From Acidobacteriota bacterium (GTDB lineage Bacteria > Acidobacteriota > Blastocatellia > UBA7656), in the NCBI GenBank assembly GCA_016201275.1, contig JACQDB010000020.1:1443-65442 (forward strand): a stretch of 64,000 nt of DNA, given 5' to 3'. Position numbers and translations under genes: made by a program. This document shows positions 1,155 through 31,715 of the stretch, in pieces. The notes beneath the pieces were generated by a model, which saw nothing but the letters and a program-made list of their open reading frames with translations, was not told where the DNA came from and searched no databases. Position 1 is the stretch's first letter; each line of letters opens with the position of its first letter.

Positions 1155-1225
1155 AATATAAAATTTTATTTTCTTCCCCTTCCTTAACTATAGGCGTTAA
1201 GAAAAAGTTTTCTTCTGAAACGACC

Positions 1226-1310: not shown

Positions 1311-1357
1311 AGGCTGCGGTTGATTTCTCCAGAAAAACATTTTCGTAAAAGCTAACT

Positions 1358-1720: not shown

Positions 1721-1741
1721 ACTCCACCTCCGTACTTTGAT

Positions 1742-8600: not shown

Positions 8601-8829
8601 ACGGCCTTACGATCACGATTATGGCGACAGTCGTTATGCGCGGGAAGACACCCGCATGGCTTTGCGACAGGCGCGCATCGAAGGCATCACGCCGTTTTGC
8701 ATCACCATTGACCGGGATTCCGAAGACCAGTTGAAAGATATGTACGGCGAAGTCGGCTACACGATTATTGATGACGTTTTGAATTTGCCGGAACGACTGC
8801 CCGGCATTTATCGCAGATTGACAACCTAG
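5671..8829 (+). CDS. NorD/CbbO-like vWA protein with N-terminal helical repeats
   Basis: TDG-like [46 protein letters not shown]. Confidence 0.85.
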
Positions 8830-8927
8830 AAAGTAACGCCGACGGCGCGCTTGCGTTGCCAAGGCCTGAACCAATTCCACGCGCCAACCCGGCGTTTGCG
8901 CTACGGCTTTTCGAGGAGAAAATTTCC

Positions 8928-9467
8928 ATGCAGAAAAAAATATCCCCCATCGTCCATCGGTTAGTTGTGCTTCTGGCTATCGGCGCTTTGGTTCCCTGCT
9001 CTCCAGCACAGACGCCTTTGAAGGTTTGCCCGAACCCTGTAGCGCCGTGCAAAAGTAAGCACCGCGAGTTTTATCCTTACGATCTATCTTTCACGTTGCC
9101 AGCGAAAATCAAAGTGAATACCGATTATACCTCCGCACCGTTTTTTGCCGTGATGTTGAAGGATAAAATTCAGGTCGCCGAAAAAGAAGAATGCGATGGC
9201 GGCGAATTCCACACACGAGTCGAAAACGAACGCAAAAAAATTCAAACCCTCTTCCCGGATAAAAAAGTTTTCGCCTCGTATCAATGCCCGGATATGGGCG
9301 CGCTTTCCTATACGGTTTACGGCAAGCCGCTCAACGATAACTTCATTGCGCTTTATGCCGGCGACACTTTGGAAAAAGCCAATCAAACCTTAGCGCTGGC
9401 AAAAACCAAGTATCCGAAAGCGACGTTAAAAAAGATGCAGGTCGGCTATAACCAAATTGACCAATAA
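8928..9467 (+). CDS. Hypothetical secreted protein
   Basis: GAGGAG RBS, signal-peptide-like N-terminus, paired Cys. Confidence 0.7.
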   Translation: MQKKISPIVHRLVVLLAIGALVPCSPAQTPLKVCPNPVAPCKSKHREFYPYDLSFTLPAKIKVNTDYTSAPFFAVMLKDKIQVAEKEECDGGEFHTRVENERKKIQTLFPDKKVFASYQCPDMGALSYTVYGKPLNDNFIALYAGDTLEKANQTLALAKTKYPKATLKKMQVGYNQIDQ

Positions 9468-9507
9468 AGCGTGCCGGATAAATTCCTGATGATGGTGAAA
9501 AAATTTC

Positions 9508-10278
9508 ATGAGCGAATCAACCATCTGCAATTTTGCAGCAACGATTTGTCGAAAGCATGAAAACGCTGTCTATCGCCTAGCCCTCGAAGAAAAGCGCGGC
9601 GCGGGCAGCAACACCTACACCTATGGCGGGTTGGATTATCTATCGGATAAATTCGCCAGCACGCTTCAACAAGGCGGCGTCAAGCAAGGCGAAGTGGTTG
9701 CCGTGCGGTTGTCGCCATCGGCGGCTTTGGTCGTTGCACATCTAGGGGTATTGAAACTCGGCGCAGTGGTTGCGGCCATCCCCGTTCAGATGGAAACCAG
9801 TTTCATCAATCAAGTTCTTCAAGAGAGTCAGCCGCAAGCATTGGTTATAGATGAAGCGGAAAGCACTCGGTTGGCATCGCTGCTTGACCGTCCGAACACC
9901 GCGACCATTTTTATCGTCAGCGATTATGTCAGTAAGAATGATTTTGCCAATGGCTATAAAAATTTCTGGCGCGAAATCAATTTCGCCGATGCCGATGTTC
10001 AAATCGCCCAGACCGATGAAGCGTCCCTCGCCTACTATTTTTTTGCAGCAGATAAAAATCCGCAACTGAAAAAACTGACGGTCACACATGATGATTTACT
10101 TGCCGCTTCACAAGCAGCCGCTAGCGATGAAGATAGTTTTGGTGAGGACGAGCTTCCATTTCAAACTTCAAAGGATTGGGCGGCGATGGAGGTTTTGACT
10201 GGCGAAATCTTTCCGGTTTTATATCGTGGACAGTGCCTCTCAACAAGGGATTTTGATGTGAAAAAACTGTCACCTTAA
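9508..10278 (+). CDS. Truncated, degenerate AMP-binding (ANL) N-terminal domain protein
   Basis: TYGGLDYLSDKFA...GVKQGEVVAV...LKLGAV resembles the ANL N-terminus; P-loop and C-terminal half absent. Confidence 0.65.
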   Translation: MSESTICNFAATICRKHENAVYRLALEEKRGAGSNTYTYGGLDYLSDKFASTLQQGGVKQGEVVAVRLSPSAALVVAHLGVLKLGAVVAAIPVQMETSFINQVLQESQPQALVIDEAESTRLASLLDRPNTATIFIVSDYVSKNDFANGYKNFWREINFADADVQIAQTDEASLAYYFFAADKNPQLKKLTVTHDDLLAASQAAASDEDSFGEDELPFQTSKDWAAMEVLTGEIFPVLYRGQCLSTRDFDVKKLSP

Positions 10279-10290
10279 CACGAATGCAAC

Positions 10291-10658
10291 GTAACTACCC
10301 GGCCTAGAGCGGTTTTCATTGGGTGTACGGAACCCCCTATCGTTGAGCAGCGGTCTTCGACCGCGCGAAGGTCTTCGACCGCCGCTCAACGGGTTTGAGG
10401 TTTCCGTAATCTCAAACCAAAACCGCTCTAGTTGTGAGAGTTGAATGCTGTGCGGATGTGCCGCTTTGAGGTGCGGAGAGTCTATGACTCTGCGTTAGGC
10501 TGGTTCTCCTTTTTTGCGGCTGCGCCGCACCGGAGGCTGCGCCTCAGAAAAGCTTGGAGGGCGGCGTAGCTGCGAGAGTGGGGAGCATAGCTTACGGAAA
10601 GGCGTAGTCTCTCCGCATATCAAAGCGGCACAGCCGCAAGCACTGGCTGGGTCGTTAC
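10291..10658. mobile_element. MITE with 14-bp TIRs and 8-bp target duplication, carrying a nested second MITE
   Basis: TIRs GTAACTACCCGGCC / GGCTGGGTCGTTAC (12/14); AATGCAAC duplicated at 10283-10290 and 10659-10666; internal IR GTGCCGCTTTGA / TCAAAGCGGCAC. Confidence 0.85.
10307..10428. mobile_element. 122-bp TA-targeting MITE (copy 1)
   Basis: TA-GAGCGGTTTT...AAAACCGCTC-TA; closely similar inverted copy at 46575-46695. Confidence 0.88.
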
Positions 10659-16283: not shown

Positions 16284-17696
16284 TCAATCTTCGGTGTGCT
16301 GGTCGCCATCGAAGTGCATCACCAACGGTTCATCGTCCACTACGGTCTCCAAATGCACATCGCGTCCCCACAACTTGAAAACATATTCCATGGTTTTGTG
16401 AGCGTACTTCATATCCAGTTCGACGCCCTCAAAGCGATGCCGCAGATACAACTCTCGATTGCGGTCATAATCGCCATCCATTACTTCTATGTAAGGAAAA
16501 CCGAAATTGGTCATGTTGGCAACCAGTTGATCGCGGACTTTTTCCCAACGCTTTTCGGTGATCGTCCACTCTTCTTCATCCACCAACTCGTAAACGAACA
16601 AGTCCAACTCTTCGCATAACTCTTCGGTCAGATAATTTCTGAGGAAAGAAATATCATTATCCATTTCGCGCACTTCAAATAATTTCTGTCGCCCTTCGCC
16701 GCCGACCCGGCCATATTTTTCGCGCTCTTCCTTTGTGGGATTGTCCCAGCGTCGCTCAATATCTTCAAAGATTTTATACCCCAGATAATACGGGTTGAGT
16801 TGCCCTTTATGCGGCGAGACGACCCCGGCGTGAAGTTCGGCAAATTCCAGATGATCGGCGGTAGGCAAATCCATTTCCCGCATGATACGTGAATGCCAGA
16901 ACGATGCGAATCCTTCATTCATGATCTTGGTCTGCATTTGCGGCACGAAGTATTCCATCTCTTCGTGCAGCATGGTCATGACTTCGCGCTGCCAGTCCTT
17001 GAGAATCGGCGAATGCTTCATGAGGTAATAGACCAAATCTTTTTCTGGCACTTCTTTGTTGAGCGGTTCGGCAAATGGATCAATGATGGCCTTGCCCAAT
17101 TCCGCATCGCTCATCAAATCGTCATAGCGGCCTTCGACTTTCGATGGCTTCTTTTCATCCTTTCGGTCTGGTTCGCGGTGCGATTTTCGTATGAAGAAAT
17201 TCGGGTCAATGTGTTCTTCGATGGAGAGGACGGCATCGAGAAATTCCTCTACGACTTTGCGCCCATAAGTAAATTCGTATTCCGCCATGCGGCGAGCGTG
17301 CAGCGCCGCTTCGTCAATCATGCGGCGATTGGTGTGCGAAAAATAGGCGTTGTTCTTGAAGAAATCTACATGGCCGAGAACGTGCGCGATGACCAGTTCG
17401 TTTTGTATCGGCGAATTGGTTTCCAATAAAAACGCATACGAAGGATTCGAGTTGATGACCACTTCATAAATCTTTGACAAACCAAAGTCATACATCATCT
17501 TCATGCGATTGTAGGCTTTGCCAAACGTCCAATGCGAATAACGCCCCGGCAAAGCATACGAGCCGACTTCGTACATCACAGTTGCCGGAACGATTTCAAA
17601 GCGCACAGGAAACGGATCGAGGCCGAATTTATTGGTCGCTATGTCCCAAATCTGCTCGACCGCTTTTTCCAGTTCTCTGACTTCTTTATCAACCAT
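16284..17696 (-). CDS. spoVR: SpoVR family protein
   Basis: [50 protein letters not shown]. Confidence 0.95.
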
Positions 17697-17743
17697 AACT
17701 TTTCTTCTGCCGAGTAATCGAGGTTTCGCCTCTGGGTTGGTGG

Positions 17744-20200
17744 TTACACTTCTTCGCCGCGTTTGCCGAAAAATTCTTTCAAGGCCGGATAGACATCCTC
17801 TTTTTCATCTATGCGAACGCCTATGAAGCGGTCTTGATTTTTCAAGCGGTCTTTGAAGATGGAAAGCAATGCGCCCGACGAACGCCGATAACTCAACGCG
17901 CCTTCTTCGCCAATTTCGCCATAGCCGAACAGATTACAGGTCGAAATTAATTCGTCGGCCAGTTTGATCGCCTCGTCATTGTCCGAATAATAATTGTCAC
18001 CATCGGAAAAATGAAACGGATAGATGTTCCAGTCTTTCGGCAGAAAGCGCTCCGTTATTAGATCAAGCGCCAGTTTGTAAGCCGACGACACGACTGTGCC
18101 GCCCGATTCGCCTTGCGTGAAGAATTGTTCTTCAGTGACCTCTTTGGCTTCTGTGTGATGGCTGATGAAGACGATCTTCACCTGATCGTATTTGGTCCGC
18201 AAAAACCGCACCATCCAGAAATAAAACGAGCGTGCGATATATTTCTTGAATTCGCTCATGCTGTTGTGGCTCAGTATGCCGTCAACGATGTAGTTGTGAT
18301 GATCGGCAACTTCAAAATCATAAACCTGGACGACTTCTTCAGAACGGGAAATCCTTTTTATTTTCGACACCAGCAGTTGACGATCCAGGACTTCCTGAAC
18401 GGCTAGGAAATCTTTTTCACTCGCCTTTGCGTCACGCGTGATGGTTTGCAACTGGCTGTAGGACAACGCATGAGCCGTCGGCTGGTAATAACTGTAGGTG
18501 CGCGTAGTGTTGAAAAGATGACCAAATTCATTTCGCCAATCAAACGGCATGATGAATTTGCTTCGCATGGCATTGATACCGGCTTGTTGTCGTGTTACCA
18601 GTGTGTCCAGCTTGGCGGATTTTTCCCTGCACGCAAAACCAATCTCTTCTTTGAAGCGAATCGCATCTTTGGCGTGAAGCGACAGAGCATAATAAGTTCC
18701 CGCTTTGAGAGGTTTTTCACCTAGCCTGTGCTGCTTCTGAACAATCTGGGTTATGCGGGCGCGCATTCCCCAATACGAGAGCAGATGTTTGACCTGCTTG
18801 ACCAGCATTCGACTGGATGAATTCAGCATCACGCTATGATGCGCGACCGTCCCTTCGGCATCGAATAAGCCGCGTAAAAATGCGGCGCGAACCACAGGCG
18901 ATTCCCTGTAGATCGAGCTTTCGATGTAGCGTTGCGGAGAGCGACGAGTCAGCATTGGATAATCGGCGGCTAGCCGCCGCACCAATTCAACGCTGTTGAC
19001 ATTGAGGCGTTGCCGCGAATTTTCGCTCTTCTTCAGTTTGATAATCCCGCACTTTGCAAATGCCCTCTGGAAAAGCTCTTTGTACATTTCCAGCCGGTCG
19101 AGATTTTCATCGGAGATAGACAGATAGGTTCCGTAGCTGCCAGCCTTTTTGGGAATTCGCAAGTGACCATCACCCAACAAAACGCCCGTCAGATATGCCT
19201 GTTCTGCGGTCAAAGAGGATGGCAAAGATTCCTCACGCCCGGCAATCTTTCCCCACGAATTCACCAGAATCAGTTTATCGCCTTCTTCCAGTTCATCCGC
19301 CCGCTTTTCAACAATGCGATTACTGATTTCATGGTAAACAAAAAACCGATGCGCGTCGGTAGCCTGAAATCGTCCGTCTTCCGCTTCAATAATCAACGTG
19401 CGGTTCACCGGTTTGGTAAAGGTCTCCGAAACGCTTGAAGCAGTCTTTTGATAACTGTACAAATCAACGCAGGCGACCTCGTCACCCACGCTGATTTCGG
19501 AGATGTCTTTATAAGAACCGTCGGCCATTTCAATCAGGTGACCGGCGGTAAAGCAGCCGCTGACATCCATCATTGCGATTACGACGGCGTTGGATTCAAA
19601 GCGAATCTCTTCTTCCCAGGTCTTGTAGCGCAGGTCTTCTTTTTTGAAGGCTCCGAGTTCGGCTTTGCCTTTTTCTCTGGCCTGACGTTTGATGTTTTCT
19701 AAAATGCTGCGGCGTTTATCGAGGTTCGACATGATGCCGGTGCGGCGAATCTCTGTGAACTTCGTGGTCTTGGATTCCACCGCCTGCTTGGCTTTTTCTT
19801 CAAGGAAAGGCAGATGCAAATCTTCAAAAATCAACTTGGCGATTTCATCTATCTCGACATCGGCTTCGTAATAATCCTGCCCCGCCTGATCGCCGGCCTT
19901 GTCGCCGCGCCCAGGCCCCTGCCCTTGCTGACCTTCGCGGGCAATCACGTCGCCGACCTGAGTTTTGCCATCGCCCGTGCCTACCTGTTTTTTCTTGCGA
20001 TAATCAAAGCGGAATTTATATTCATCGAGCGAGCGTATCGGCACTTTGACGACTTTTTTGCCATCGGAAAGAATGATGGATTCATTCGAGACGATGGAGC
20101 CTAGGTTCTTCTTGATCGCCTCTTTGACACGCTCTTTATGACGTTCCTGATCAATTTGACCTTTGCGTTGCAGCGACCAATCATTGCGTTGTACAGACAT
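17744..20200 (-). CDS. yeaH: YeaH/YhbH (DUF444) vWA-like protein, intein-containing (387 aa after splicing)
   Basis: DQERH..VKEAIK, DLRYKTW, MDVSG|intein|SM, ESGGT..SSAY, FSDGDN; lies between prkA and spoVR. Confidence 0.93.
18263..19555 (-). mobile_element. 431-aa intein with LAGLIDADG homing endonuclease
   Basis: Block A CFTAGH, block B ATDAHRF, LAGLIDADG motifs LTGVLLGDG and [10 protein letters not shown], block F VYDFEV, block G SHN followed by Ser+1. Confidence 0.95.
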
Positions 20201-20277
20201 AACTTTTTCCTAAACCGAAGCCCGCACATTCACAGCGAATGCGCGGGCTTCAGAAAAAAACGCTCACCGCCCGTGGC

Positions 20278-22203
20278 TTATCGGGACAACAACGTGCCTA
20301 CATAAGTCAGCAATTCATTGGCGCAAACGGTGCAATAGCCATGCTCACTGACTAGCCGATCAATGACATCGTTGATGCGGCGTTTCTGGTCAGTGTCCGG
20401 CGTCTTCGATGACGTGGTAATCTTCACCACATCCTTGAGGTCTGAGAAAATCTTCTTCTCGATAGCCTCTTTCAAGCGTTCGTGCGACTGATACTCGAAG
20501 GGCTTACCTTTCCGCGCATAAGTCGAAATGCGTATGAGAATTTCCTGGCGGAACGTATTCTTAGCGTTTTCGCTGATGCCGATCTGCTCTTCGATGGAAC
20601 GCATTAATTTTTCATCCGGCTCCATCTCTTCTTCGGTAATCGGGTCTTTGATTTTTTCCTTGTTGCAGTAAGCTTCGACGTTATCGAGATAGTTATTGCA
20701 GATGCCTTTGGCCATCTCTTCAAACGAATATACGAAAGCGCGTTGGACTTCTTTCTTGGCCACTTCGTCATATTCACGCCGCGCCGCCGAAACCAGATTC
20801 AAATAGGTTTCGCGCTGTTCGGAACTGATGCCAGTGTGTTGCTCAAAGCCGTCTTTAATGGCGCGCAAGGCATCAATCGGGTTGATGCAGGTGATGTTAT
20901 CTTTGACCAGCGCCCCTGAAAGCCTGTTGATAATGTAGCGTGGGCTGATGCCATCCATGCCTTCGCGCACTGTCTCTTCCTGCATCTCGCGCACGTCTTT
21001 CAGTTTGAAGCCCTCGACATCTTCGCCGTCATACAGTTTCATCTTTTTGACGATGTCGATGTTGGCTTTCTTCGGCACTTCCAAACGCGTCATCACGGCA
21101 AACATCGCGGCAATCTTCAAGGTGTTGGGCGCGATGTGAATATTCCGCAAGGCTTCGGATTGCTTGAGCAGTTTGTCGTAAATGCGTTCTTCCTGCGTGA
21201 CCTTGAGGTTGTAAGGAACCTTGACCAGAATGATGCGGTCTTGCAGGGCTTCGCTCTTGCGATTGGCCGCAAACGAGTTGTATTCGTTTTCGTTGGTGTG
21301 CGACAAAATCACTTCATCGGCATAAATCATGGCAAAGCGCCCGGTCTTGATATTCTGCTCCTGACTCAAGGTCAACAAACTGTAGAGGAACTTCTCGTCG
21401 CACTTTAACATTTCTATGAATTCCATCAAGCCGCGATTGGCGATGTTCAATTCGCCGTCAAAGCGATAGGCGCGAGGGTCGGACTCAACACCGACTTCAC
21501 CGATGGTGGAAAGATCAATCGAGCCGGTCAATTCGGTGATGTCCTGGGATTTTGGATCCGAGGGCGTGAAGGTGCCTATGCCTATGCGTTCCTTTTCGGA
21601 GAAGATGAGGCGATGCACCAGCACATCTTCGTGGCGACCTTTATAAACGTGTTCGAGATTATAACGGCATTGCGGACAGAGTTCGCCTTCGATATAAAGC
21701 CCGTAATGTTTGGCAATTTCGGGGCGCAATTCGGGCGGAATCAAGTGCAGCGGCTCCTCGTGCATAGGGCAATCTTTAATCGAATAGACTGCGCCTTTAT
21801 CGCTACGGCTATAGGCTTCCAAGCCGCGTTTCAAGAGCGTCACGATAGTGGATTTGCCGCCGCCGACCGGCCCCATCAAAAGCAATATGCGCTTGCGAAC
21901 CTCTAAGCGTTGGGCTGCGGATTTGAAGTATTCGACGATGCGAGCGATGGGCGATTCAATGCCATATAACTCATCGCTGAAAAAATTGAAGCGGGTGATT
22001 TCATCGCGGGAGCCTTCGTTGATCTTTTCGACTCCGGCATCCAAAATCATTTCGCAGATGCGCGCATGAGAAAGTTTGGCAAGATTCGGGTGTTGCGAGA
22101 CCAACTCGAAATAATCCCGGAATGTGCCTTCCCAAGCCAGTCGTTCACGGTCACGACGATGTGCTTCTAACAGTTCGCTGAGATTCATTTTGTCTTCGCC
22201 CAT
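20278..22203 (-). CDS. prkA: PrkA/YeaG AAA-type serine protein kinase
   Basis: GPVGGGKS Walker A, ESDPRAY.FDGELNIANRG, NEY, EALQDR, GISPRY. Confidence 0.95.
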   Translation of the reverse strand: MGEDKMNLSELLEAHRRDRERLAWEGTFRDYFELVSQHPNLAKLSHARICEMILDAGVEKINEGSRDEITRFNFFSDELYGIESPIARIVEYFKSAAQRLEVRKRILLLMGPVGGGKSTIVTLLKRGLEAYSRSDKGAVYSIKDCPMHEEPLHLIPPELRPEIAKHYGLYIEGELCPQCRYNLEHVYKGRHEDVLVHRLIFSEKERIGIGTFTPSDPKSQDITELTGSIDLSTIGEVGVESDPRAYRFDGELNIANRGLMEFIEMLKCDEKFLYSLLTLSQEQNIKTGRFAMIYADEVILSHTNENEYNSFAANRKSEALQDRIILVKVPYNLKVTQEERIYDKLLKQSEALRNIHIAPNTLKIAAMFAVMTRLEVPKKANIDIVKKMKLYDGEDVEGFKLKDVREMQEETVREGMDGISPRYIINRLSGALVKDNITCINPIDALRAIKDGFEQHTGISSEQRETYLNLVSAARREYDEVAKKEVQRAFVYSFEEMAKGICNNYLDNVEAYCNKEKIKDPITEEEMEPDEKLMRSIEEQIGISENAKNTFRQEILIRISTYARKGKPFEYQSHERLKEAIEKKIFSDLKDVVKITTSSKTPDTDQKRRINDVIDRLVSEHGYCTVCANELLTYVGTLLSR

Positions 22204-23453: not shown

Positions 23454-24233
23454 TTATTTCGGTGCTATCGGAATATCTTTTTGCGTGGTGATGGGCGCGC
23501 CTTCCTGTTCCAGCGGCGCGACGAAATTAAAGAGGCGCAGCGCCAGCTTGCCTTTTTTTCCAAGCCTCGGATCAAATTCGTAAGCGGTCACCGAACAGTT
23601 GGCGATTTCATGGGTCCGATCCATTTCCATAATCTCTTCTTCGGTCAAATGCTCAAGCAGATAGCGAAAGCAATTGACGATGACTTGATGCGCGACAATC
23701 AAAACGCGCTCGCGGCGATGTTCGCGGCTGATCGTGTCCATCAAGCTGCGAAGCCGCAAGAGGACATCGCACCAGCTTTCGCCGCCCGGCGGACGATAAT
23801 AAAATTTACCCAACACGGTTCGCGCTTCAGCCTGCTCAGGATACAGTTGCTGAACCCCGGTCTTGGTTATCCGGTCAAAGATGCCAAACTCTTTTTCGCG
23901 CAGTCGCTCATCTACAATCAAGGCGAAATCGTCATCCTTCATAGCGGCGTTTTGCAGCACGATTTGCGCCGTATCGCGCGCCCGTTTATACGGTGAGACG
24001 AAAACCACCGACGGCCTCTCGACCTCCTGGAGCCGGCCAAACCAACGCCCCAAGGCCGCTGCCTGCTGTTTGCCCAACGCCGACAACGGCACTTCAACTT
24101 CGCGTTGTGGCAATTCGATAAATGATGTGCCGGTTTGTTCGGCTTCCCTGCGCGCCACGTTGCCTGCACTCTCGCCGTGCCGCACAATCCACATTACATC
24201 CGGCCATTTTTGGGTTTTTTCAAATTGAGTCAT
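23454..24233 (-). CDS. Histidine phosphatase (phosphoglycerate mutase family)
   Basis: RHGES, SPYKRARDTA, LREKEFG, GGES, VAH. Confidence 0.92.
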   Translation of the reverse strand: MTQFEKTQKWPDVMWIVRHGESAGNVARREAEQTGTSFIELPQREVEVPLSALGKQQAAALGRWFGRLQEVERPSVVFVSPYKRARDTAQIVLQNAAMKDDDFALIVDERLREKEFGIFDRITKTGVQQLYPEQAEARTVLGKFYYRPPGGESWCDVLLRLRSLMDTISREHRRERVLIVAHQVIVNCFRYLLEHLTEEEIMEMDRTHEIANCSVTAYEFDPRLGKKGKLALRLFNFVAPLEQEGAPITTQKDIPIAPK

Positions 24234-24447: not shown

Positions 24448-25686
24448 TCAAATAATCAAGATCGAGGGAACTTCTTCGAGATGGTAAAGCCGCAGATAAA
24501 AATAGCCGATGCCACTTAGTCCCAGCATCAAGTTTGGAGTTTCGCCAGCGCCAGGAACGCCGCACGGCCACGGCAAATCATTTTTTCGATACTGTTCAAT
24601 GCCGAAATCCCCCAGCCGCTCGACGGTCTCCAACGCTTCAGGATATTGCCAAAGGCGGTGCGCGTAAAGCAGTAACTCGGCATTGCCCGTATGTCCATGA
24701 CACAACGAAAAATTGGCTTGGCTGAAATAACTTGAATTCGCCAGCGTCTTGGTGGTCGAGCGAAGGGCGGCTTCGGCTTCCTGGCGATAGCCTTCGTCAC
24801 CGGTCAATTCCCAAGCGCGCAATCGCGCCAAGCCTATGCCGGGAGCGCCGTGACACCAGGCCATTGAATAGCTCAACTCCGCATTGGCGTTAGGCATCGC
24901 TTCGCCAAAGGTACGAAAGTCAGGCCAGTTGTCCTGTTCAGCACTGAACCAATGCTGTTCATAACGGCAAGCTTGGGTGGCGGCAACTTGAAATTTCTCT
25001 TCTCCGGTGACGCCATAGAGTTCCAAAAACGCCCAGCCAATGCCCGCCGTGCCATGAGAAAACCCGGTTAGATTACGCGGCGTATTCAGGGTATTCCAAG
25101 ACCAGCCTTCATCGCTCTTCAGGGCGGTGTCAAGCAAATGATTGCCGTGTCGAATGGCCAACTCAACAAGAAAATCTTGCGGCTGTTTTTGATGAAGATA
25201 GAGCAAAGCGGGAATCGCGCCAGCGCTGCCGGAGATAACATCCAAGCCTTGCTGCATCGGATCATCTTTACTCAACTCTTCGGCGAGGCGCAGCGCCTGT
25301 TCAATTAAATATTGACTAGCAAATATTTCAGCAAGCTGAACCAAGCTATAGGCAATGCCGCTCCACCCCGAATAAAAACCGCTGCGCGCCGCTGGCGACA
25401 GTTGCTCGCAACGTGACAACGCCTGCGCGATCCCGCCTTCCGCCGTCAAGCGGTGAATTTTGTCATGGGTGAATTTATACAGGTGCGCGAGAAACAAAGC
25501 GATGCCGGCGGTGCCACTGTAGAGGTCCGCGCCATAAGCGCGATGCACCGCCATCCAGGCATTGTCGGTAAACTCCATCGAAGGCCCCAGCCAATTGCAC
25601 CGCTGCTCGTGCCATACCGCATCGCGGCACACTTTGGCACCGATAAAAGTTGCAGTTTCAAGAAAGGCTTCCTTGGTGTGATTCAT
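24448..25686 (-). CDS. LanC-type lanthionine cyclase
   Basis: LYSGTAGI, GFSHGTAG (catalytic His), WCHG and LCHG zinc ligands, LMLGLSGIG. Confidence 0.92.
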   Translation of the reverse strand: MNHTKEAFLETATFIGAKVCRDAVWHEQRCNWLGPSMEFTDNAWMAVHRAYGADLYSGTAGIALFLAHLYKFTHDKIHRLTAEGGIAQALSRCEQLSPAARSGFYSGWSGIAYSLVQLAEIFASQYLIEQALRLAEELSKDDPMQQGLDVISGSAGAIPALLYLHQKQPQDFLVELAIRHGNHLLDTALKSDEGWSWNTLNTPRNLTGFSHGTAGIGWAFLELYGVTGEEKFQVAATQACRYEQHWFSAEQDNWPDFRTFGEAMPNANAELSYSMAWCHGAPGIGLARLRAWELTGDEGYRQEAEAALRSTTKTLANSSYFSQANFSLCHGHTGNAELLLYAHRLWQYPEALETVERLGDFGIEQYRKNDLPWPCGVPGAGETPNLMLGLSGIGYFYLRLYHLEEVPSILII

Positions 25687-26714
25687 AGTTGGTCAATTCG
25701 CGATTCCGGGAAATCAAAATAATCTTGGGAGCCAGGATTCAAGTACGGATGGTCTAGCGACAAGCCGTGATGAGCAAATTGGGCGCGGACTTCCTGCAAG
25801 CGTTTGACCTCTGGAAGCACGCCTTTTTCATACGCCTGCCACACGCCTTCGGCAAAAATGCGGCACCGATGCTGCCCAAAACTTTCCCCGTTGCCGGGCT
25901 CTTCGGCAAGTCCCAGTCCGTAAGCTAAGCGTTTCGTAAACAGCGGCGTGTCCGTGCCTAGATAGTCTTTAATCAAGGGGTGAAGGTCGGCTAGCAAGGC
26001 GACGGTGATTTTATAAAAGCGCTTGCCCACGTACAGAACAGCGGCATCCGAGCGTTGAAAAAATGAGCGATTGGTCAAGGTCTTGAAGCGAAACGGTATC
26101 TGAAAGCGATTGAGTTCCTGCGTGATGAAGCGTACTAACTTGGCAGCCCCAGCCTGCTTGATATGCCAATAAAATCGCACGATTTGATAATCATCCTGTT
26201 GATCGGGAATGGATTCACTGAAGGCAAAATAGAAGCCCGGCTGCATGGTCTGCGATTCTTTCGGCGCGAATAAACTGATGTTAGCGCCTTCACGCGGCGG
26301 CACTCCCGGCCCTTCGTGAGAGACAAACTCCCCCGGCCACAACAATCGGGTGCGCCCGTTTTTGTGCGCGACAATTTGACCGGATGGCAGCAAACGAAAA
26401 GTTTGCCAACCGGCGTCCCAATGCTCGCGGCTCATATTGGAAGCCGCGAGTTCACCCAATAGATTATCATCAGCGGTTTGCTCCGACGGCTGCATCGGCT
26501 GCACCTCGCCGGTGAATTTTCTACAATAGCAATGCTGATAGAGTTGCTGTGCCAGTTGCGCGACCAAGGGATTCGGGGCGGGGAAAATCGGCAACTGCGT
26601 CATCGTCCGTTCCGATGCCGAGAAGGTTTCACCCGCCAATGAGAAAGTAGTTGCGGAAAGAATCTTTATGGCGCGCAAAATTTTCACATACTGTTTTTGG
26701 GCTACATCTTTCAT
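25683..26714 (-). CDS. HopA1-domain protein, LanY-like phosphoSer/Thr lyase
   Basis: RFYWH, PFRFK, RSDAAVLYV, PLFTK.L..GLGLAEEP, SFGQHRC; overlaps the lanC start. Confidence 0.85.
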   Translation of the reverse strand: MKDVAQKQYVKILRAIKILSATTFSLAGETFSASERTMTQLPIFPAPNPLVAQLAQQLYQHCYCRKFTGEVQPMQPSEQTADDNLLGELAASNMSREHWDAGWQTFRLLPSGQIVAHKNGRTRLLWPGEFVSHEGPGVPPREGANISLFAPKESQTMQPGFYFAFSESIPDQQDDYQIVRFYWHIKQAGAAKLVRFITQELNRFQIPFRFKTLTNRSFFQRSDAAVLYVGKRFYKITVALLADLHPLIKDYLGTDTPLFTKRLAYGLGLAEEPGNGESFGQHRCRIFAEGVWQAYEKGVLPEVKRLQEVRAQFAHHGLSLDHPYLNPGSQDYFDFPESRIDQL

Positions 26715-26730
26715 AAGTCGTAGGTCGCTT

Positions 26731-27831
26731 TCACATCTCCAATAAATCACTGATGGCTTCTTGCGGACTCTTCAAAATGTTCATGCTCACTTGCAACATA
26801 TAGAGAACCGGAAGAGTGATATGCGGTGAATACTGCAAATACTCGTAGGCCGTTTGAATCATGCGCGCCGCGCCAAATTTCACGCAGCGTTCCAGCAAGT
26901 TGCGCCTTTGCTCGACAGCAATCTGCCGGGTCTCTATATAGGTTTTCCAAAAGGCATGAATCGCCGGTAACATCGCTTCAAGGGGAAACTGCGCCATCTC
27001 GATGAGTTGTGCAGGCGCGGCGCGTGTCTCCATAGGAATAGACATGATCCAAAAGGCCAGATAGGCTTGAAGAATCGCGCCGACATCCCAACACGCATCG
27101 CCAATGTCAGCGAGTTCCCAATCCACCACCTTAAAATCCAAATCCGCCGCGCCCTGCTGACCGGCAAAGACCATGCAATTATCCCATTTCATGTCCCCGT
27201 GAATGAGGCTGTCAAATTGCCATTGGTCGCGTATATCATCAAGCGCCTGATGAAACTCAGGATATTTTTGCACGATGTTCAGGAGCTCCGAATTGCCCGC
27301 GCTCAGAGCATTGAACAACTGTGCGCGTTGTTGGTTGGCAGACAAAATCCAGGGAACCTGTTTGGGAAAGACTGAATTTTGCACCGCGTCATTGAGGCTG
27401 GAGATCGTCTGATGATGATAGGTTCCTAACGCTTGACCCAGTTTCTCGGCAATGGCGACCGGAAACTTGCCCAGCCGACGTTGATGCTCCGACAGGTTTT
27501 CGCCTTCCTGCAACAACTCCGTCACCAGTATGTGGCGCGCTGAATCATAAAGAAAATACTTGGGCATCAGCGCCGCCAGAGGAGCAAGCTCGGCCTCCTG
27601 TTGCGCCAGTTGGTAACAGGTCGCCTCGCGTTGCAAGGTCGCAATCGCCAGCGGCTCCCAGTTCTGAATCTGCTTGAGAAAAAAACTTTGCTGCTGATGG
27701 CGAATGATTTTGAAATTGCGGTTGCGCCGCGTCACCTCGACAATCATTAGATCACCATCCACAACGGATTGAGTAGAAACGAGTCCTTTATCAATCAGGT
27801 AGTAGGAGAGGTTGGCAGGTGTAATCATCAT
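26731..27831 (-). CDS. APH-family phosphotransferase, LanK-like Ser/Thr kinase
   Basis: RRNRNF, FLKQ, RE, LIHGDMKWDN, VDWE, GDACWDVG. Confidence 0.88.
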   Translation of the reverse strand: MMITPANLSYYLIDKGLVSTQSVVDGDLMIVEVTRRNRNFKIIRHQQQSFFLKQIQNWEPLAIATLQREATCYQLAQQEAELAPLAALMPKYFLYDSARHILVTELLQEGENLSEHQRRLGKFPVAIAEKLGQALGTYHHQTISSLNDAVQNSVFPKQVPWILSANQQRAQLFNALSAGNSELLNIVQKYPEFHQALDDIRDQWQFDSLIHGDMKWDNCMVFAGQQGAADLDFKVVDWELADIGDACWDVGAILQAYLAFWIMSIPMETRAAPAQLIEMAQFPLEAMLPAIHAFWKTYIETRQIAVEQRRNLLERCVKFGAARMIQTAYEYLQYSPHITLPVLYMLQVSMNILKSPQEAISDLLEM

Positions 27832-27931
27832 ATTGTTGTTTAACAAAAATAATGCAGTAAGACAAATCCTGAAGCCTGAAGGTTCGCCATCGCAGCCGCG
27901 CCAAGACGGCAACTCTTTCTCCGCTAGGGTT

Positions 27932-27972
27932 GGAGTAAGTCTCATCGTCAGATGGGCGACAAGACTTACTCC
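27932..27972. other. Intergenic hairpin between substrate gene and modifying enzymes
   Basis: 11-bp inverted repeat GGAGTAAGTCT...AGACTTACTCC; no U-tract. Confidence 0.55.
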
Positions 27973-27998
27973 TGGAACCGTCAGTCGTGGGCGCTGAC

Positions 27999-29051
27999 TT
28001 ATTGATTAATGGGACCTCCTCCCGGTCCGCAAGCCAACGTCACGCCGCAAGCTATGCTTTGCGGGCCGCAAGCCAAACCGGTCGGGCAGGCAACGCCGCC
28101 GGAAACCGGAGGACAATGCACCCCTGGCAACGTCGGACAGTGCGCCGTCTGCAAGTTACAGATTATGGGGTTGGTCGGATGACAAATAATCTGATGCGAC
28201 GGACACACCGGGGTCGGACACGCCGGAGTCGGTGGATGACACACAGGAGGATGTGTGCATAAAGGCGTCGGACAGCCATGCACAGGCGTCAGTGGCGGAC
28301 AGCATAGCGAAGGCGCTACATGAGTTGGGCAACACAGCGTCGGCCCAGTCGGACAGCCAAGTAGTGGCGTATGCGGCGGACAACCGTGCAACGGCGTATG
28401 CGGCGGACAACCATGCAAGGGGGTAAACGGCGGACAGCCATGGAATGGCGTAAATGGCGGACAGCCAAACTGTGGCGTATGCGGCGGACAGCCATGCAAG
28501 GGTGTGAATGGCGGACACAGCACCGGCGGAGTGGGACAGCCGTGGAATGGTGTATGCAGACAACCCGGAGGTAAGGTTACCGGCGGACAGCCATGCAATG
28601 GACTCGGAGGCGGACATTCAATTTGTGAAACGCAAATATGCCCTACCGATGGGCAATGCGCGGGTTGCGTCGGACACAAGATAGTTGGGGGTGGAATCGG
28701 CGCAGCCGCTGCCTGTGCCGCCGCCTGGGCAATCGGCCCTTCAAAAAATTTGGCCTTGGTGCGCTGTGGTCCAGCCTTGCCGTGAATGACTTCAGCATCT
28801 TGCTTAATCCACACAAAGCTTTCCCCAAGAGGTGACTGTTCTTTGGGTACGTCTTCTTCATGAAGAATCGCATCATCGGGAATCTCTACGTAGCTGCTGA
28901 GGGTGGCGTCGAAATACAACCGCGTATGTTCCGCTTCTGATGATTCGCCCAGATACCCTCGCAACAACAACGTATCGGGAGGAGAATCGGGATTCTTCAC
29001 AATCTTAGAGACGAAATTTTCCTTTCGTGGTTTTGTTTTACGATCTGCCAT
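27999..29051 (-). CDS. Putative giant RiPP precursor: 122-aa Cys-free N-domain plus 228-aa Pro/Cys/Thr/His-rich core
   Basis: AGGAGA RBS before ATG 29051; core has 31 Cys and 31 Ser/Thr in matched order; directly upstream of kinase, lyase and cyclase genes. Confidence 0.85.
   Translation of the reverse strand: MADRKTKPRKENFVSKIVKNPDSPPDTLLLRGYLGESSEAEHTRLYFDATLSSYVEIPDDAILHEEDVPKEQSPLGESFVWIKQDAEVIHGKAGPQRTKAKFFEGPIAQAAAQAAAAPIPPPTILCPTQPAHCPSVGHICVSQIECPPPSPLHGCPPVTLPPGCLHTPFHGCPTPPVLCPPFTPLHGCPPHTPQFGCPPFTPFHGCPPFTPLHGCPPHTPLHGCPPHTPLLGCPTGPTLCCPTHVAPSLCCPPLTPVHGCPTPLCTHPPVCHPPTPACPTPVCPSHQIICHPTNPIICNLQTAHCPTLPGVHCPPVSGGVACPTGLACGPQSIACGVTLACGPGGGPINQ
28356..28517 (-). repeat. 27-bp x6 coding tandem repeat, CPP(F/H)TPxxG
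   Basis: CPPFTPLHG CPPHTPQFG CPPFTPFHG CPPFTPLHG CPPHTPLHG CPPHTPLLG. Confidence 0.95.
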
Positions 29052-29240
29052 ATGCAATCTCCTATACAACAACCCCGTTGCTCACGGGGGTGGGGGTAAG
29101 CGAGAGAAAGTTGTAGATAACTTGGTCTCGGCGCTCACATTGGTTATTGGTAATGACTGAGTGAGGAAAGAGCCGTATTCCACTTTGTAGAATACTTGGA
29201 ATCTCACAGTGTAGTGAGACCTCAGTCATAAAGCGGTCAG

Positions 29241-29269
29241 ATATTATAAACCCTTAAATCAAATGTCAA
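29241..29269 (-). promoter_or_regulatory. Near-consensus sigma70 promoter for the RiPP operon
   Basis: TTGACA-N17-TAATAT (overlapping TATAAT at N15), about 190 bp upstream of the ATG. Confidence 0.6.
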
Positions 29270-29504: not shown

Positions 29505-31715
29505 TTATTGTCTGGTCAAGCGTTCTTCCAGCCCTTTCAAGGAGCCGTTAAGTTTTTTATACAAGGCTTCGATTTGAGCTTTGCGAACCTTTTCGCTGCT
29601 GGCTCCCGGCTCGTAACTGGCGATGTAAAACTCCAGCGCGTTGCGGTCATCTCCGGCTTCTTCGGTAGCCAGTGCCAAATGCCACAAGGCATTTTTGCGT
29701 TCCGGGCTGGGCAGATAAACCTCTACCGACTTCGATAAATTTTCGATGGCGTTGCGCGTGTCGCCTTTCTTAAACAACGTCCAACCCAACACATCATAAG
29801 TTCGGCCCAGAAAAACCGCACGGCGTCCATCACGATCTAACAAAGGCGCATCGCGCATGGAGTTATCCGGCTCGGTCGCCGCCTCCGCTATCGCCAGCGC
29901 TCGCCGCGCCAGTTGCTCCGCCGCATCCAGTGCCAAGCCGCCTTCGGTTAAACGTCGCGCCGCCCAAACCATGCGAAAGGCTTGGCGGCCATCATCCAAA
30001 GTCGTAAAGGTGGTGATGGCGCGCAGCAATTCTTCCATGCCTTCGAGGTGAGCATCGCGCCCAGCCGATAACGCTTCATTGGCCGACACCGCCGTGCCAG
30101 CAGCGCGACGCGGGCGCGTTGCCAACGCTGCTTCTTCGCTGCTACGTTTCGCCGAAGCGCTGCCTTTTCCAGCACCTGCCGCCGGACGTTTTTTAGTCGT
30201 GGCGGTCGCCGTCGTCATTGCTGATTTTTTTGCTGCTGCCGCCACCTGCAAATATTTATTGATGCGGCCAAGCGCTTCGGCTAAACGATATTGCAGCGTT
30301 GTGGTCGGGCCTTCATTCAAAAACAGCGCCGCTTGTCTTTCGCGTTCGATCAATAAATCGAGGCGTTGCGAACGCGCTTTGGAAACGCCGCCCAGCAGGG
30401 TTTCAAATTCTCCGTCGGCAGTCACCGTAAAGGCTTTGCCCATGACTTCGAGCGCCTGATCATAACCATCCACGGCCATCAACATCTTGACGAGTTCAAA
30501 ATTCATGGTGGCGAATTGGCCGAACTCCTGCGCCGCAATCATGGTCGAAAGCGCGTCGCCATATTTATTCTCCAACAAATCGGCGTTGGCTTTGGCGATA
30601 TGTATCCAGCCCAAGCGCGGCACGATGTGCGCCACGCGATCAATCAAAGGGCGCGCCTGTGCCGGTTTTTTGCGATTCAAAAAAAAGAAGGCCAGTTGCG
30701 TAGGAATGCGATAATCATTCGGGTCAAGCTTCATAGCGGTTTGAAATTCCGCTTCGGCCTGCTCCTCGCGCCCCAAGGCATACAAAGTCAAAGCCAAGCC
30801 GCCGTGTGCTTCGGCATCGTCGGGTTTCAACTTCAGGTGTTGGCGATAAGCTGATTCGGCGCGTTCATAATCGCCCGTGCTTCGCAGCAGATTGGCGAGA
30901 TTCAAATTGGCAAACTCATCTTTGGGATTTAGCTCCAAAGCTTTTTCGTACTCTGCCATCGCGTCATTCAAGCGCAAATTAATCAGGTAGGCATTGCCCA
31001 GCGCGTTATGCGCTCGATGATCTTCGGGTGCCAGCTTAACGGCGTATTCCAAAATCCGCACGGCCTCCAGCGGCGCTTCAATCTGAACATAGAAAAAGCC
31101 GATCTGCACCAAGCGATTGGCATCCTTGTCAAAACGCTTTTCAAAAGCGCGCATCAATTCAACCGACTCGGCGCGAAAACCGAAAGCGCTCATCGCTACA
31201 GGCATAGGAAAGATGTACTGGTCAAAAATTTTGTCGCCCATCTTTTCGGGAGCCAGTCGCAGCACCGCCGAAAAATCCTGCGCGGCATTTTGCGGATTGC
31301 CTTCGCGCAACGATTGTTCGCCGCGCAAAGTGTATTCGCGCATCAACAACTCTCTGGCCTGCTGCACCCCTTCGCCGCGTTGGGTGACGATGAATTTTTC
31401 CAAAGCGTTGATGCGGTCTTTTTGCGAAGCCATTGCGCGTATGCGCTCCAAAGCATCAGGAGCCGTCACGTCAACGGTTTCGCCGCCCGCCTCGTCAATC
31501 GGTTGGGGGTCTTTTTTAGGCGTCGCAGCCGCAGGTTTAGGCGCAGTCTTGACTGGCGCAGTCGTTTTTTTCGGCGCGGTTTTCACCGGCTTCGGCGTAC
31601 TCTTCGCGCCTTTTTTGCTTTGCCCGAAGCTGACCGAACTGCTTGCCATCAATTGACCGACGAGAATCAGAATGGCAATAAAAAATTTTGCCCTGCTTTT
31701 ATCATTCAACATCAT
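29505..31715 (-). CDS. Secreted tetratricopeptide-repeat protein
   Basis: Signal peptide, Lys/Pro/Ala linker, TPRs (AHNALGNAY..A...YEKALELNP; DVLGWTLFKKG). Confidence 0.88.
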   Translation of the reverse strand: MMLNDKSRAKFFIAILILVGQLMASSSVSFGQSKKGAKSTPKPVKTAPKKTTAPVKTAPKPAAATPKKDPQPIDEAGGETVDVTAPDALERIRAMASQKDRINALEKFIVTQRGEGVQQARELLMREYTLRGEQSLREGNPQNAAQDFSAVLRLAPEKMGDKIFDQYIFPMPVAMSAFGFRAESVELMRAFEKRFDKDANRLVQIGFFYVQIEAPLEAVRILEYAVKLAPEDHRAHNALGNAYLINLRLNDAMAEYEKALELNPKDEFANLNLANLLRSTGDYERAESAYRQHLKLKPDDAEAHGGLALTLYALGREEQAEAEFQTAMKLDPNDYRIPTQLAFFFLNRKKPAQARPLIDRVAHIVPRLGWIHIAKANADLLENKYGDALSTMIAAQEFGQFATMNFELVKMLMAVDGYDQALEVMGKAFTVTADGEFETLLGGVSKARSQRLDLLIERERQAALFLNEGPTTTLQYRLAEALGRINKYLQVAAAAKKSAMTTATATTKKRPAAGAGKGSASAKRSSEEAALATRPRRAAGTAVSANEALSAGRDAHLEGMEELLRAITTFTTLDDGRQAFRMVWAARRLTEGGLALDAAEQLARRALAIAEAATEPDNSMRDAPLLDRDGRRAVFLGRTYDVLGWTLFKKGDTRNAIENLSKSVEVYLPSPERKNALWHLALATEEAGDDRNALEFYIASYEPGASSEKVRKAQIEALYKKLNGSLKGLEERLTRQ

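Follow-up and report, generated by a model that had tools for sequence, protein, structure and literature searches.

A four-gene operon that probably makes a protein-sized, many-ringed class Vb-type lanthipeptide

Introduction

What becomes of a protein whose long tail matches 31 Cys to 31 Ser/Thr residues, when its gene is followed by genes for a kinase, a lyase, and a LanC cyclase? The question arose in a 64,000-nt stretch of Acidobacteriota DNA (the window; the source genome is metagenome-assembled). A first-pass annotation, made from the letters of the DNA, had read the locus as four co-oriented genes (substrate, APH kinase, HopA1 protein, and LanC) whose product would consist of about 31 (methyl)lanthionine rings in a row. 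We consider it likely that these genes form a self-contained operon making a protein-sized class Vb-type lanthipeptide, and the substrate is probably related to lantibiotic peptides, though giant and with many rings.

Results

Organization of the cassette

Four ORFs on the minus strand of the window follow one another in the order substrate, kinase, lyase, and cyclase; the ORF list and Pfam matches bear out the four co-oriented genes of the first-pass annotation.

29241..29269, minus strand: promoter-like site TTGACA-17-TAATAT, ~190 nt upstream of the substrate gene (consensus match)
29059..29063, minus strand: ribosome-binding site AGGAG, 7 nt ahead of the ATG at 29051 (direct sequence reading)
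27999..29051, minus strand: substrate gene A, 350 aa plus stop, ATG at 29051 (longest ORF 27999-29072, 357 aa)
26731..27945, minus strand: LanK-type APH kinase (longest ORF 404 aa; PF01636)
25683..26750, minus strand: LanY-type HopA1 phospho-Ser/Thr lyase, 355 aa, 20-nt overlap with the kinase gene (PF17914)
24448..25686, minus strand: LanC zinc cyclase, 412 aa, 4-nt overlap with the lyase gene (PF05147)

The kinase probably starts at the ATG at 27831, since this is where homology to the orthologues sets in (the first query residue aligned by tblastn is 17-39). Reading the site at 29241..29269 as the promoter of the substrate gene is only suggestive, because the scanned region held three promoter-like sites against 4.6 expected by chance. 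This site sits in a gap of ~450 nt behind an upstream TPR gene. The substrate gene is single copy in its own genome, the LanC of the operon is the only LanC-like gene of that genome, and no protease is found within ~10 kb of the cassette in the window.

The enzymes resemble a split class V dehydratase and a zinc cyclase

The kinase matches PF01636 (E 1.9e-6) and scores 99.7 bits against NCBIfam NF038156 (LxmK), under the equivalog cut-off of 315; by sequence it is an LxmK homologue and distant relative, not an equivalog. The lyase matches PF17914 (E 6.7e-41). Their sole sequence matches in the PDB are the two chains of one entry, 9DK1 (kinase to 9dk1_A, E 1.7e-5; lyase to 9dk1_B, E 4.6e-11). 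According to a review, that entry is the heterodimer of LxmK and LxmY, the dehydratase of lexapeptide, a class V lanthipeptide (PMC12141560). For cacaoidin, an APH kinase and a HopA1 lyase are reported to carry out dehydration in vitro (PMC9486802), and this precedent together with the 9DK1 matches supports the earlier reading of the pair as a class V split dehydratase.

Catalytic residues are conserved in all three enzymes. All 15 kinase orthologues compared carry H-G-D-x-K-W-D-N and D-W-E unchanged, and lyase K223 is invariant in 12 of 12, with Tyr240 following 17 residues on in a D-A-A-V-L-Y-V consensus. LanC matches PF05147 (LANC_like, E 1.5e-68) and scores 313 bits against the LanM cyclase region model TIGR03897 (cut-off 304). 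Its SHG, WCHG, and LCHG motifs align to NisC (2g02) and LicM2 (6st5). All 12 orthologues compared keep the motif residues H211, C278-H279, and C329-H330, which we take to supply the zinc-binding Cys, Cys, and His as well as the active-site His. The LanC assignment thus holds up on both alignment and conservation.

Each Cys of the core is matched by an upstream Ser/Thr

The core of the substrate has the following layout.

28002..28685, minus strand: core, Pro-rich with almost no charge; 31 Cys, 31 Ser/Thr (counts and AF2)
28350..28517, minus strand: tandem array inside the core, ~6 units of 27 nt (9 aa) of the type P-P-x-T-P-x-x-G-C

Recounting the 232 residues past residue 125 of the 357-aa ORF gave 31 Cys, 24 Thr, and 7 Ser, identical to the first count; re-reading returned the same core coordinates, and the first 125 ORF residues contain no Cys, as had been said of the N-domain. 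Asp, Lys, Arg, Met, Trp, and Tyr are absent from the core, which has one Glu and 20 His and is disordered in the AF2 model (pLDDT ~41-54). The core divides into 31 inter-Cys segments. A single Ser/Thr is present in 27 of these, two more segments contain two each, and the last two are empty; both two-donor segments precede a Cys-Cys doublet, as claimed earlier, and it is these doublets that produce the empty segments. The Ser/Thr-to-Cys distance, first given as 3-6 residues, is so for 28 of 31 pairs. The other three (2, 2, and 7) all fall inside the two doublet units and widen the range to 2-7.

This arrangement was not reproduced by shuffling. In 200,000 shuffled cores the number of one-donor segments averaged 7.9 and peaked at 20, never attaining 27, and none kept the balance of Ser/Thr minus Cys between 0 and 2. 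Since the tandem array spans only 28350-28517, recent duplication of a single unit does not account for most of the pairs. The predicted rings would be separated by segments of 1-3 residues, in which there is no conserved recognition or cleavage sequence.

A folded N-domain with a predicted kinase-docking motif

Three further features concern the N-terminal part of the substrate and the kinase surface on which it is predicted to dock.

28737..29051, minus strand: folded, Cys-free, charge-rich N-domain, residues 1-105 (AlphaFold2, conservation)
28707..28766, minus strand: conserved motif, residues 96-115, around K-A-K-F-F-E-G-P-I (predicted kinase-docking segment)
26743..26814, minus strand: kinase C-terminal helices, predicted to hold the substrate motif (model interface residues 341-364)

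AlphaFold2 predicts one helix and seven strands for the N-domain, with pLDDT 93-96 over residues 21-90; the topology was the same, though less confidently predicted, from an alignment of 22 sequences. Two Foldseek runs against the PDB returned no match to this fold at E<=0.001, and the substrate had no hit among PDB sequences. No variation was seen at G32, R44, or W81 among 150 sequences.

A predicted complex of kinase, lyase, and substrate residues 1-125 reached an ipSAE of 0.71 (0.70-0.72 in three runs; best control 0.21). Among solved complexes 58 of 80 reach this mark, and among mismatched pairs 2 of 110 do; the calibration holds only roughly, because the prediction used custom alignments and three chains. 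The runs share at least 45% of their contacts, with partner pLDDT of at least 59. On the substrate side, the contacts are residues 96-108, 110-111, and 115. The modelled interface maps to invariant positions of both partners: F102 and G105 of the motif in 22 of 22 sequences, and kinase L347, Q348, S350, N352, A360, and L364 in 15 of 15 orthologues. The model thus predicts that the C-terminal motif of the N-domain docks on the kinase. The kinase-lyase part of the model resembles a solved complex.

The family is large and travels with the three enzymes

A word-indexed search found 137 substrate homologues at E<=1e-3, and 1,603 representative clusters (50% identity) matched at E<=1e-3 (717 at E<=1e-10). 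The substrate matched no Pfam or NCBIfam family, NHLP and Nif11 leaders included. We found no match to the N-domain at E<=1e-5 in 400 other genomes of the same phylum; the family is rare in the phylum of the window. It is present in many bacterial phyla.

Gene linkage was assessed at 19 loci from species-representative genomes of several phyla. At 15 of them the kinase gene comes right after the substrate gene on the same strand, and the lyase and cyclase genes are next wherever the contig continues. Three of the remaining four are cut by contig ends; the last has no enzymes beside the substrate, and its genome carries a complete substrate-kinase-lyase-cyclase cassette on another contig. The four cassette genes are the only ones conserved among the loci: no other candidate substrate gene is conserved, no protease is conserved across 20 loci, and near the cassette no conserved gene encodes a protease, an exporter, or an immunity protein.

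The pairing rule also extends to the family (201 homologues, 5,685 Cys). At least one Ser/Thr is present in the preceding inter-Cys segment for 96.8% of Cys, and exactly one for 76.0%; 3.2% have no donor in the adjacent segment. The running count of Ser/Thr minus Cys never becomes negative in 200 of 201 real proteins versus 45 of 201 shuffled ones. The next-best single residue in this test was Pro (143/201), despite 1.7 Pro per Cys, and pooled Ala and Gly, at 1.71 per Cys, reached 159/201. Total Ser/Thr is lower than Cys in none of the 201, and the two counts rise together (r = 0.92, slope 1.10). Of the 4,318 single-donor segments, 4,269 have a donor-to-Cys span of i+3 to i+6, the ring sizes usual in lanthipeptides. 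A 26-aa indel comprising three whole Thr...Cys units separates two alleles of 92% identity, so that 31/31 becomes 28/28. The first-pass annotation had pointed to 1:1 pairing and enzyme linkage in homologues as checks on its reading, and both are conserved. Ser/Thr residues number 1.25 per Cys, with a surplus in most homologues; because of this surplus and the donor-less Cys, a simple neighbour-ring model does not accommodate every residue.

Cys number has a median of 27 and a maximum of 63 in the family, and the same N-domain precedes everything from 3-Cys cores of ~30 residues (two loci) to cores with 57-63 Cys. A constant N-domain followed by cores of varying size is, judged from these sequences, the behaviour of a leader.

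Discussion

Relation to known systems

The combination of LanK, LanY, and LanC already has a name, class Vb; by 2024 a single product of this class had been characterised, mSmoA with three rings (Pei et al., JACS 2022; via PMC11186320, PMC12291118). The trio of enzymes is therefore not new, but in the available literature we found no protein-sized substrate with ~31 rings. Our locus shares with class Vb an APH-fold kinase (PF01636), a HopA1 lyase (PF17914), and a zinc LanC, all stand-alone, and has no LanD or LanX; its products are predicted to hold only (Me)Lan cross-links. By sequence it combines a LanK with catalytic residues, a LanY with Lys and Tyr, the LanC motifs, and a leader-core precursor at ring-forming spacing, as expected of class V(b). 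The likeness to SmoK, SmoY, SmoC, and SmoA is drawn from published descriptions. The differences lie in the substrate, which has 31 predicted rings against three in mSmoA, and 350 aa with a folded domain of ~100 aa belonging to no known family. Known class V(b) members have short precursors (tens of residues, a handful of rings), which is a habit, not a formal definition. What is new, as far as the available literature goes, is thus substrate size, predicted ring number, and the absence of a protease or exporter.

Kinship to the class Va and thioamitide dehydratases (LxmK-LxmY, CaoK-CaoY, TvaC-TvaD) is distant. The kinase residues H-x-D...N and D-W-E are common to both, and the Lys...Tyr spacing of 17 in our lyase is that described for CaoY (Lys219/Tyr236; PMC9486802); here LanC stands in place of LanX/LanD, and no C-terminal AviCys is expected.

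Proteusins and prochlorosins have large, structured leaders of the NHLP/Nif11 type (PMC12537861). In them, as in our substrate, a long, folded, constant N-terminal part precedes hypervariable cores of differing length and probably serves enzyme recognition. Our substrate differs in matching neither profile and no PDB fold. Genome mining has also noted HopA1-LanC clusters and proposed lanthionine formation (Eyles et al. 2021, PMC8153245). That work networked short RiPPER peptides; its available text mentions no protein-sized substrate, and its figures S27-S32 may show the same clusters.

A model for the product, and alternatives

The gene content and order, the catalytic residues, and the pairing rule with its conservation are sequence evidence, from which we infer the dehydration, thioethers, and ring topology of the tail. 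The substrate would comprise a charged, folded N-domain of ~105 residues, a short Ala-rich linker, and a disordered, Pro-rich, nearly charge-free tail. In our model, the K-A-K-F-F-E-G-P-I motif would dock on the C-terminal helices of LanK, acting as a heterodimer with LanY like LxmK-LxmY. LanK would phosphorylate each Ser/Thr of the tail and LanY would remove the phosphate by elimination, leaving Dha/Dhb, in as many as 31 rounds. LanC would then add the thiol of every Cys to the dehydro residue that lies 3-6 positions before it. The result would be ~27 consecutive small (methyl)lanthionine rings with Pro-containing linkers, and two double-ring units at the Cys-Cys doublets. We found no literature precedent for one enzyme set iterating over 31 sites, many of them Thr-Pro.

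The same enzymes could instead make the rings on a multi-core precursor, which an unlinked protease (for example, one cutting after Pro) would divide into small mono- or bicyclic lanthipeptides, as in cyanobactin or fungal RiPP multi-core precursors. The 9-aa tandem units, the differing unit number of close alleles, and the existence of conventional 3-Cys cores all speak for this. We nevertheless think it unlikely: the inter-ring segments are very short and share no motif, the core lacks Lys, Arg, and Asp and has a single Glu, the greater part of it is not repetitive, and no protease is conserved at the loci or encoded near the cassette in the window. Incomplete or different chemistry is quite unlikely: here the tail would be dehydrated, with many Dha/Dhb left free or reacting with His or other nucleophiles, forming intermolecular cross-links, or receiving small thiols from LanC, in place of ~31 neighbour rings. 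It would suit the Ser/Thr surplus of most homologues and the 20 His of the core, and His-to-butyrine cross-links have been reported in other RiPPs (PMC10206099). However, His is present at only 0.37 per Cys in the family and is not conserved, and the strict local pairing (a single donor for each Cys at i+3 to i+6, donors never fewer than Cys in 201/201) is predicted by neighbour rings and would otherwise be superfluous.

Very improbable, in our view, is that the substrate is an unmodified metal binder of the metallothionein kind, and that the adjacent enzymes act on something else. A tail with 31 Cys and 20 His in 232 residues, of low complexity and without aromatic residues, does invite the comparison. 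Such a role would leave the 1:1 Ser/Thr pairing unexplained, and the Cys are mostly 4-9 residues apart throughout the family, not in C-x-C or C-x-x-C arrangement, with only two C-C doublets in this substrate. There is no profile match to metallothioneins or any other family; the protein has a folded N-domain, and its linkage to the three lanthionine enzymes is obligate and holds across phyla with no other candidate substrate gene conserved.

No protease or exporter travels with the cassette, so the product would retain this domain as an intact, block-amphiphilic protein with a charged head and an uncharged, thioether-stapled tail. A surface-active, structural, or membrane-directed role for it is a guess. 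More broadly, and tentatively, the family may consist of intact "lanthionine-stapled proteins", each a charged folded head on an almost uncharged rod of dozens of successive thioether rings (3 to >60 in the family), made without leader cleavage or secretion by a portable four-gene cassette of soil and groundwater bacteria in at least five or six phyla, with a role unlike that of lantibiotics (surface-active, structural, membrane-directed, or metal-related).

We know of no lanthipeptide with more than a handful of rings. If true, ~31 back-to-back thioether rings in a 230-residue tail would mean extreme enzymatic processivity and a new protein architecture. The family is large, unannotated, outside Pfam and NCBIfam, and missed by miners of short RiPP peptides, and so marks a blind spot of genome mining. 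As the four-gene cassette is compact and self-contained, the hypothesis is directly testable, and the cassette may serve as a tool to install many staples in designed Pro-rich sequences. A lanthionine-stapled protein, if it exists as proposed, would represent a novel type of protein material or amphiphile, assembled post-translationally.

An operon with a paired Cys-rich substrate

The operon consists of four ORFs:

27999-29072, minus strand: substrate ORF (ATG at 29051, giving 350 aa; no Pfam family)
26731-27945, minus strand: kinase ORF, 404 aa (Pfam APH, PF01636)
25683-26750, minus strand: lyase ORF, 355 aa (Pfam HopA1, PF17914, E 6.7e-41; 20-nt overlap with the 404-aa ORF)
24448-25686, minus strand: cyclase ORF, 412 aa (Pfam LANC_like, PF05147, E 1.5e-68; 4-nt overlap with the 355-aa ORF)

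The substrate gene has an AGGAG 7 nt ahead of the ATG at 29051. A promoter-like site (TTGACA-17-TAATAT), a consensus match only, lies ~190 nt upstream, inside a ~450-nt gap behind a TPR gene. The genome carries a single substrate gene and a single LanC-like gene. A look for sequencing runs listed four DNA runs from one groundwater-metagenome study, two of them possibly the source, and no RNA run.

The substrate consists of a Cys-free N-domain and a Cys-rich tail, or core. Residues 1-125 hold 36 charged residues and no Cys. In the tail we counted 31 Cys along with 24 Thr, 7 Ser and a single Glu; Asp, Lys, Arg, Met, Trp and Tyr are absent. Exactly one Ser/Thr, the putative ring donor, occurs in 27 of the inter-Cys segments, and both Cys-Cys doublets are preceded by a segment holding two. 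When the core was shuffled 200,000 times, the number of one-donor segments averaged 7.9 and peaked at 20, versus the 27 observed, which no shuffle reached. A 27-nt tandem array (28350-28517) accounts for only ~6 of the core units. The first-pass annotation had reported 31 matched Ser/Thr-Cys pairs in this tail; its counts and coordinates were correct on recount, and the pattern is confirmed. It had also placed a donor 3-6 residues ahead of every single Cys; taking all donors together, this distance to the next Cys holds for all but three, each of them within a doublet unit.

We tried two flanking genes as additional operon members and rejected both: the upstream TPR gene (29505-31715), which lies across the ~450-nt gap, and a downstream His_Phos_1 gene (23454-24233, minus strand), 214 nt beyond LanC. 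Neither is conserved in other loci, and the His_Phos_1 gene is therefore probably unrelated to the cassette. It lies on the same strand as LanC and has its own promoter-like site (24279-24250). The wider neighborhood is housekeeping in character (PrkA, DUF444, SpoVR, TruB, EF-G, RNase PH). The DUF444 (YeaH/YhbH-like) gene at 17744-20200 (minus strand), part of a PrkA-DUF444-SpoVR triad (16284-22203), carries an in-frame intein with a LAGLIDADG homing-endonuclease domain; Pfam splits DUF444 into two stretches and places Intein_splicing at 224-646 and LAGLIDADG_3 at 438-521.

Ser/Thr-Cys pairing across the substrate family

A word-indexed search returned 137 substrate homologues (E<=1e-3); none has a name other than "hypothetical", and one bears a Bryobacteraceae label. 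When 1.84 billion cluster representatives were searched exhaustively, 1,603 matched at E<=1e-3, of which 717 passed E<=1e-10. For analysis of pairing we assembled 229 sequences, all with the N-domain, and kept the 201 in which the domain end aligned and was followed by at least 8 Cys. We left out 26 whose Cys number was below 8 (many of them fragments or with frameshifted tails) and 2 with an unaligned domain end.

Among the 5,685 Cys of these 201 proteins, 96.8% directly follow a segment that contains one or more Ser/Thr, and for 76.0% that segment contains exactly one. Reading along each tail, the cumulative count of Ser/Thr minus Cys stayed at zero or above in 200 of 201 proteins, versus 45 of 201 when each was shuffled once. 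The same count stayed non-negative in 143 of 201 proteins for Pro (1.7 per Cys), with 16.7% of segments empty, and in 159 of 201 for the pooled Ala+Gly class (1.71 per Cys); no single residue matches Ser/Thr in pairing behavior. Ser/Thr were outnumbered by Cys in none of the 201 proteins, and the two counts correlate closely (r = 0.92, slope 1.10). In single-donor segments the Cys follows 3 to 6 residues past the donor in 4,269 of 4,318 cases, the donor being Thr in 2,865 and Ser in 1,453. Pairing of the kind first described for the window's substrate is thus conserved in its homologues. Selection for intramolecular (methyl)lanthionine rings would predict such family-wide pairing as these sequences show, and we know of no alternative reason for it.

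The metagenome proteins P0002 and P0006 are two alleles with 92% identity; one 26-residue indel between them takes out exactly three Thr...Cys units. Slippage by whole units seems to be how ring number evolves.

Many members, including P0001, P0003, P0005, P0010 and P0026, carry a Gly-rich tail of the G-G-G-G-I-N-Q or G-G-G-P-Q-F type past the last Cys. The commonest form, GGGINQ, occurs in 5 of 201 proteins. This tail could be a recognition or sorting signal. In a few homologues (P0057, P0096 and P0197) a short Cys-rich stretch gives way to an Arg-rich or Cys-poor tail; their appearance suggests frameshifting or misassembly within the repetitive core and not real variation.

The three enzymes retain catalytic motifs

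The kinase scored 99.7 bits against the NCBIfam model for the class V subunit LxmK, below the cut-off of 315, and the cyclase scored 313 bits against the LanM cyclase region (cut-off 304). In a sequence search of the PDB, kinase and lyase had one match each, chains A and B of 9DK1, identified in a review as the heterodimeric LxmK-LxmY enzyme that dehydrates the precursor of lexapeptide (PMC12141560). The kinase motifs H-G-D-x-K-W-D-N and D-W-E are invariant (15/15). Lys223 of the lyase is likewise invariant (12/12) and is followed 17 residues further on by a Tyr, the same spacing as in the catalytic pair reported for CaoY, Lys219/Tyr236 (PMC9486802). The cyclase has the motifs S-H-G, W-C-H-G and L-C-H-G, which line up with NisC and LicM2 in the alignment and are unchanged across all 12 sequences compared. 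On these motifs, all three enzymes look active.

The cassette is conserved but patchily distributed

We scanned species-representative genomes for related loci. With the single window protein as query, the scan found no relative; with two degenerate peptide patterns derived from a 13-sequence alignment it found 19 loci. According to the labels of the metagenome-assembled genomes (MAGs), which are fallible, these belong to Alphaproteobacteria (6, one of them Acetobacteraceae), Acidobacteriota (5), Verrucomicrobiota (2), Sideroxydans (2), Caldilineaceae (1), Chitinophagaceae (1), Burkholderiaceae (1) and Clostridia (1). The nearest cassette, in an Acidobacteria gp4 MAG (L007), is 56-63% identical in all four proteins.

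Linkage to the three enzymes proved to be conserved. The kinase gene comes next after the substrate gene, on the same strand, in 15 of 19 loci, and in three others (L006, L010 and L014) the contig stops within or just after the substrate gene. The lyase is present in 14 loci and the cyclase in 14, wherever the contig runs on. The sole true gap is L017, and its genome has a complete cassette on another contig (L024). The orphan substrate copy (L017:2004-2897; 297 aa, 20 Cys) lies far from that cassette, whose own substrate (L024:2523-4535) has 671 aa and 57 Cys. We considered a 983-aa ORF after the L017 substrate as another class of synthetase and rejected it, since it lacks a Pfam match, has an Arg content of 15.7%, includes X residues and shares its span with ORFs on the opposite strand. 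It is probably spurious.

All-against-all ORF clustering of 20 loci, the window included, recovered as conserved only the four cassette genes and their antisense shadows; no protease, exporter, immunity, His-phosphatase or TPR gene accompanies the cassette in this set. A search with the N-domain against 400 other genomes sampled from the window's phylum gave no match at E<=1e-5. Given this result and the single-copy genes in the window's genome, the cassette is patchy and probably mobile between lineages.

Several loci vary the arrangement. L009 has two substrate genes in tandem (8001-9194 and 9408-10544). In Sideroxydans (L020:7983-8408 and L021:3184-3606) the same N-domain sits on a ~30-residue core of conventional size with 3 Cys, and this short-core gene is followed by a longer substrate-like ORF and then the kinase-lyase-cyclase set. 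These two loci offer a natural pairing of small and large cores for experiments. At the Candidatus Angelobacter locus L003, a 901-aa class III/IV-type synthetase (287-2992, plus strand; RamC_N, Pkinase and LANC_like) lies ~5 kb upstream of the cassette, giving two lanthionine systems at that locus.

The N-domain is predicted to dock on the kinase

The substrate matched no family in Pfam or NCBIfam and no PDB sequence at E<=1. Foldseek searches of the PDB with the full model and the N-domain model each gave no match at E<=0.001; recurring Hcp/tube-like rows were weak and non-significant. In the ESM Atlas, residues 1-118 matched unnamed clusters only, with a best score of 0.88, below the 0.9 lead threshold. 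AlphaFold2 (150 sequences) predicted an N-domain of one helix and seven strands, with pLDDT 93-96 over residues 21-90, a further helix at 106-116 and a disordered tail (pLDDT ~41-54). A model from a 22-sequence alignment had identical topology at lower confidence. The final conserved stretch of the domain reads approximately K-A-K-F-F-E-G-P-I, with F102 and G105 invariant (22/22).

Prediction of a complex of kinase, lyase and substrate residues 1-125 gave a score of 0.71 (runs 0.70-0.72) versus 0.21 for the best control. Among solved complexes 58 of 80 attain this mark, and among mismatched pairs 2 of 110, a calibration that is approximate here because we used our own alignments and a three-chain job. 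At least 45% of contacts agreed between runs, and partner pLDDT was at least 59. The confident predicted contacts lie between substrate residues 96-115 and kinase residues 341-364; six positions in the kinase stretch are invariant. The substrate side has no solved relative, which makes a memorized known structure an unlikely source of that part of the model. The prediction supports binding of the N-domain to the kinase. Across the family, one N-domain carries cores ranging from ~30 residues with 3 Cys, at the two Sideroxydans loci, to 57-63 Cys, which is how a leader or docking domain would be expected to behave.

Discussion

Class V lanthipeptides are defined by stand-alone LanK (PF01636) and LanY (PF17914). 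Class Va products contain AviMeCys and their clusters have no LanC; class Vb products contain only (Me)Lan and are made with LanC (PMC11186320, PMC12291118). Eyles et al., in an analysis based on a network of short peptides, found LanC close by or fused in the case of 20% of HopA1-like proteins, and Figs S27-S32 of that paper may show related HopA1-LanC clusters (PMC8153245). The enzyme trio is thus of a known kind. In the main text of openly accessible papers, we found no report of a giant or poly-lanthionine protein or of this N-domain, nor of a substrate of protein size with many rings and a folded domain of its own, a bare four-gene cassette or a family of this breadth.

The components and the pairing rule can be read from the sequences, and they suggest the following scheme. 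The N-domain motif would dock the substrate onto LanK-LanY, as the complex model predicts. The kinase would phosphorylate Ser/Thr of the tail, presumably processively, and the lyase would eliminate the phosphate. LanC would then join each Cys to the dehydro residue 3-6 positions upstream, and the outcome would be a series of ~27 successive rings, together with two double-ring units. The first-pass annotation had proposed that kinase, lyase and LanC act together on the paired tail to form about 31 rings; this interpretation is supported to the extent that sequence allows, and we regard a poly-lanthionine product as rather probable. Since the cassette comes without a protease or exporter, we infer that the N-domain stays attached to the product. 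With its N-domain retained, the product would be a block amphiphile whose head is charged and whose stapled tail is nearly free of charge.
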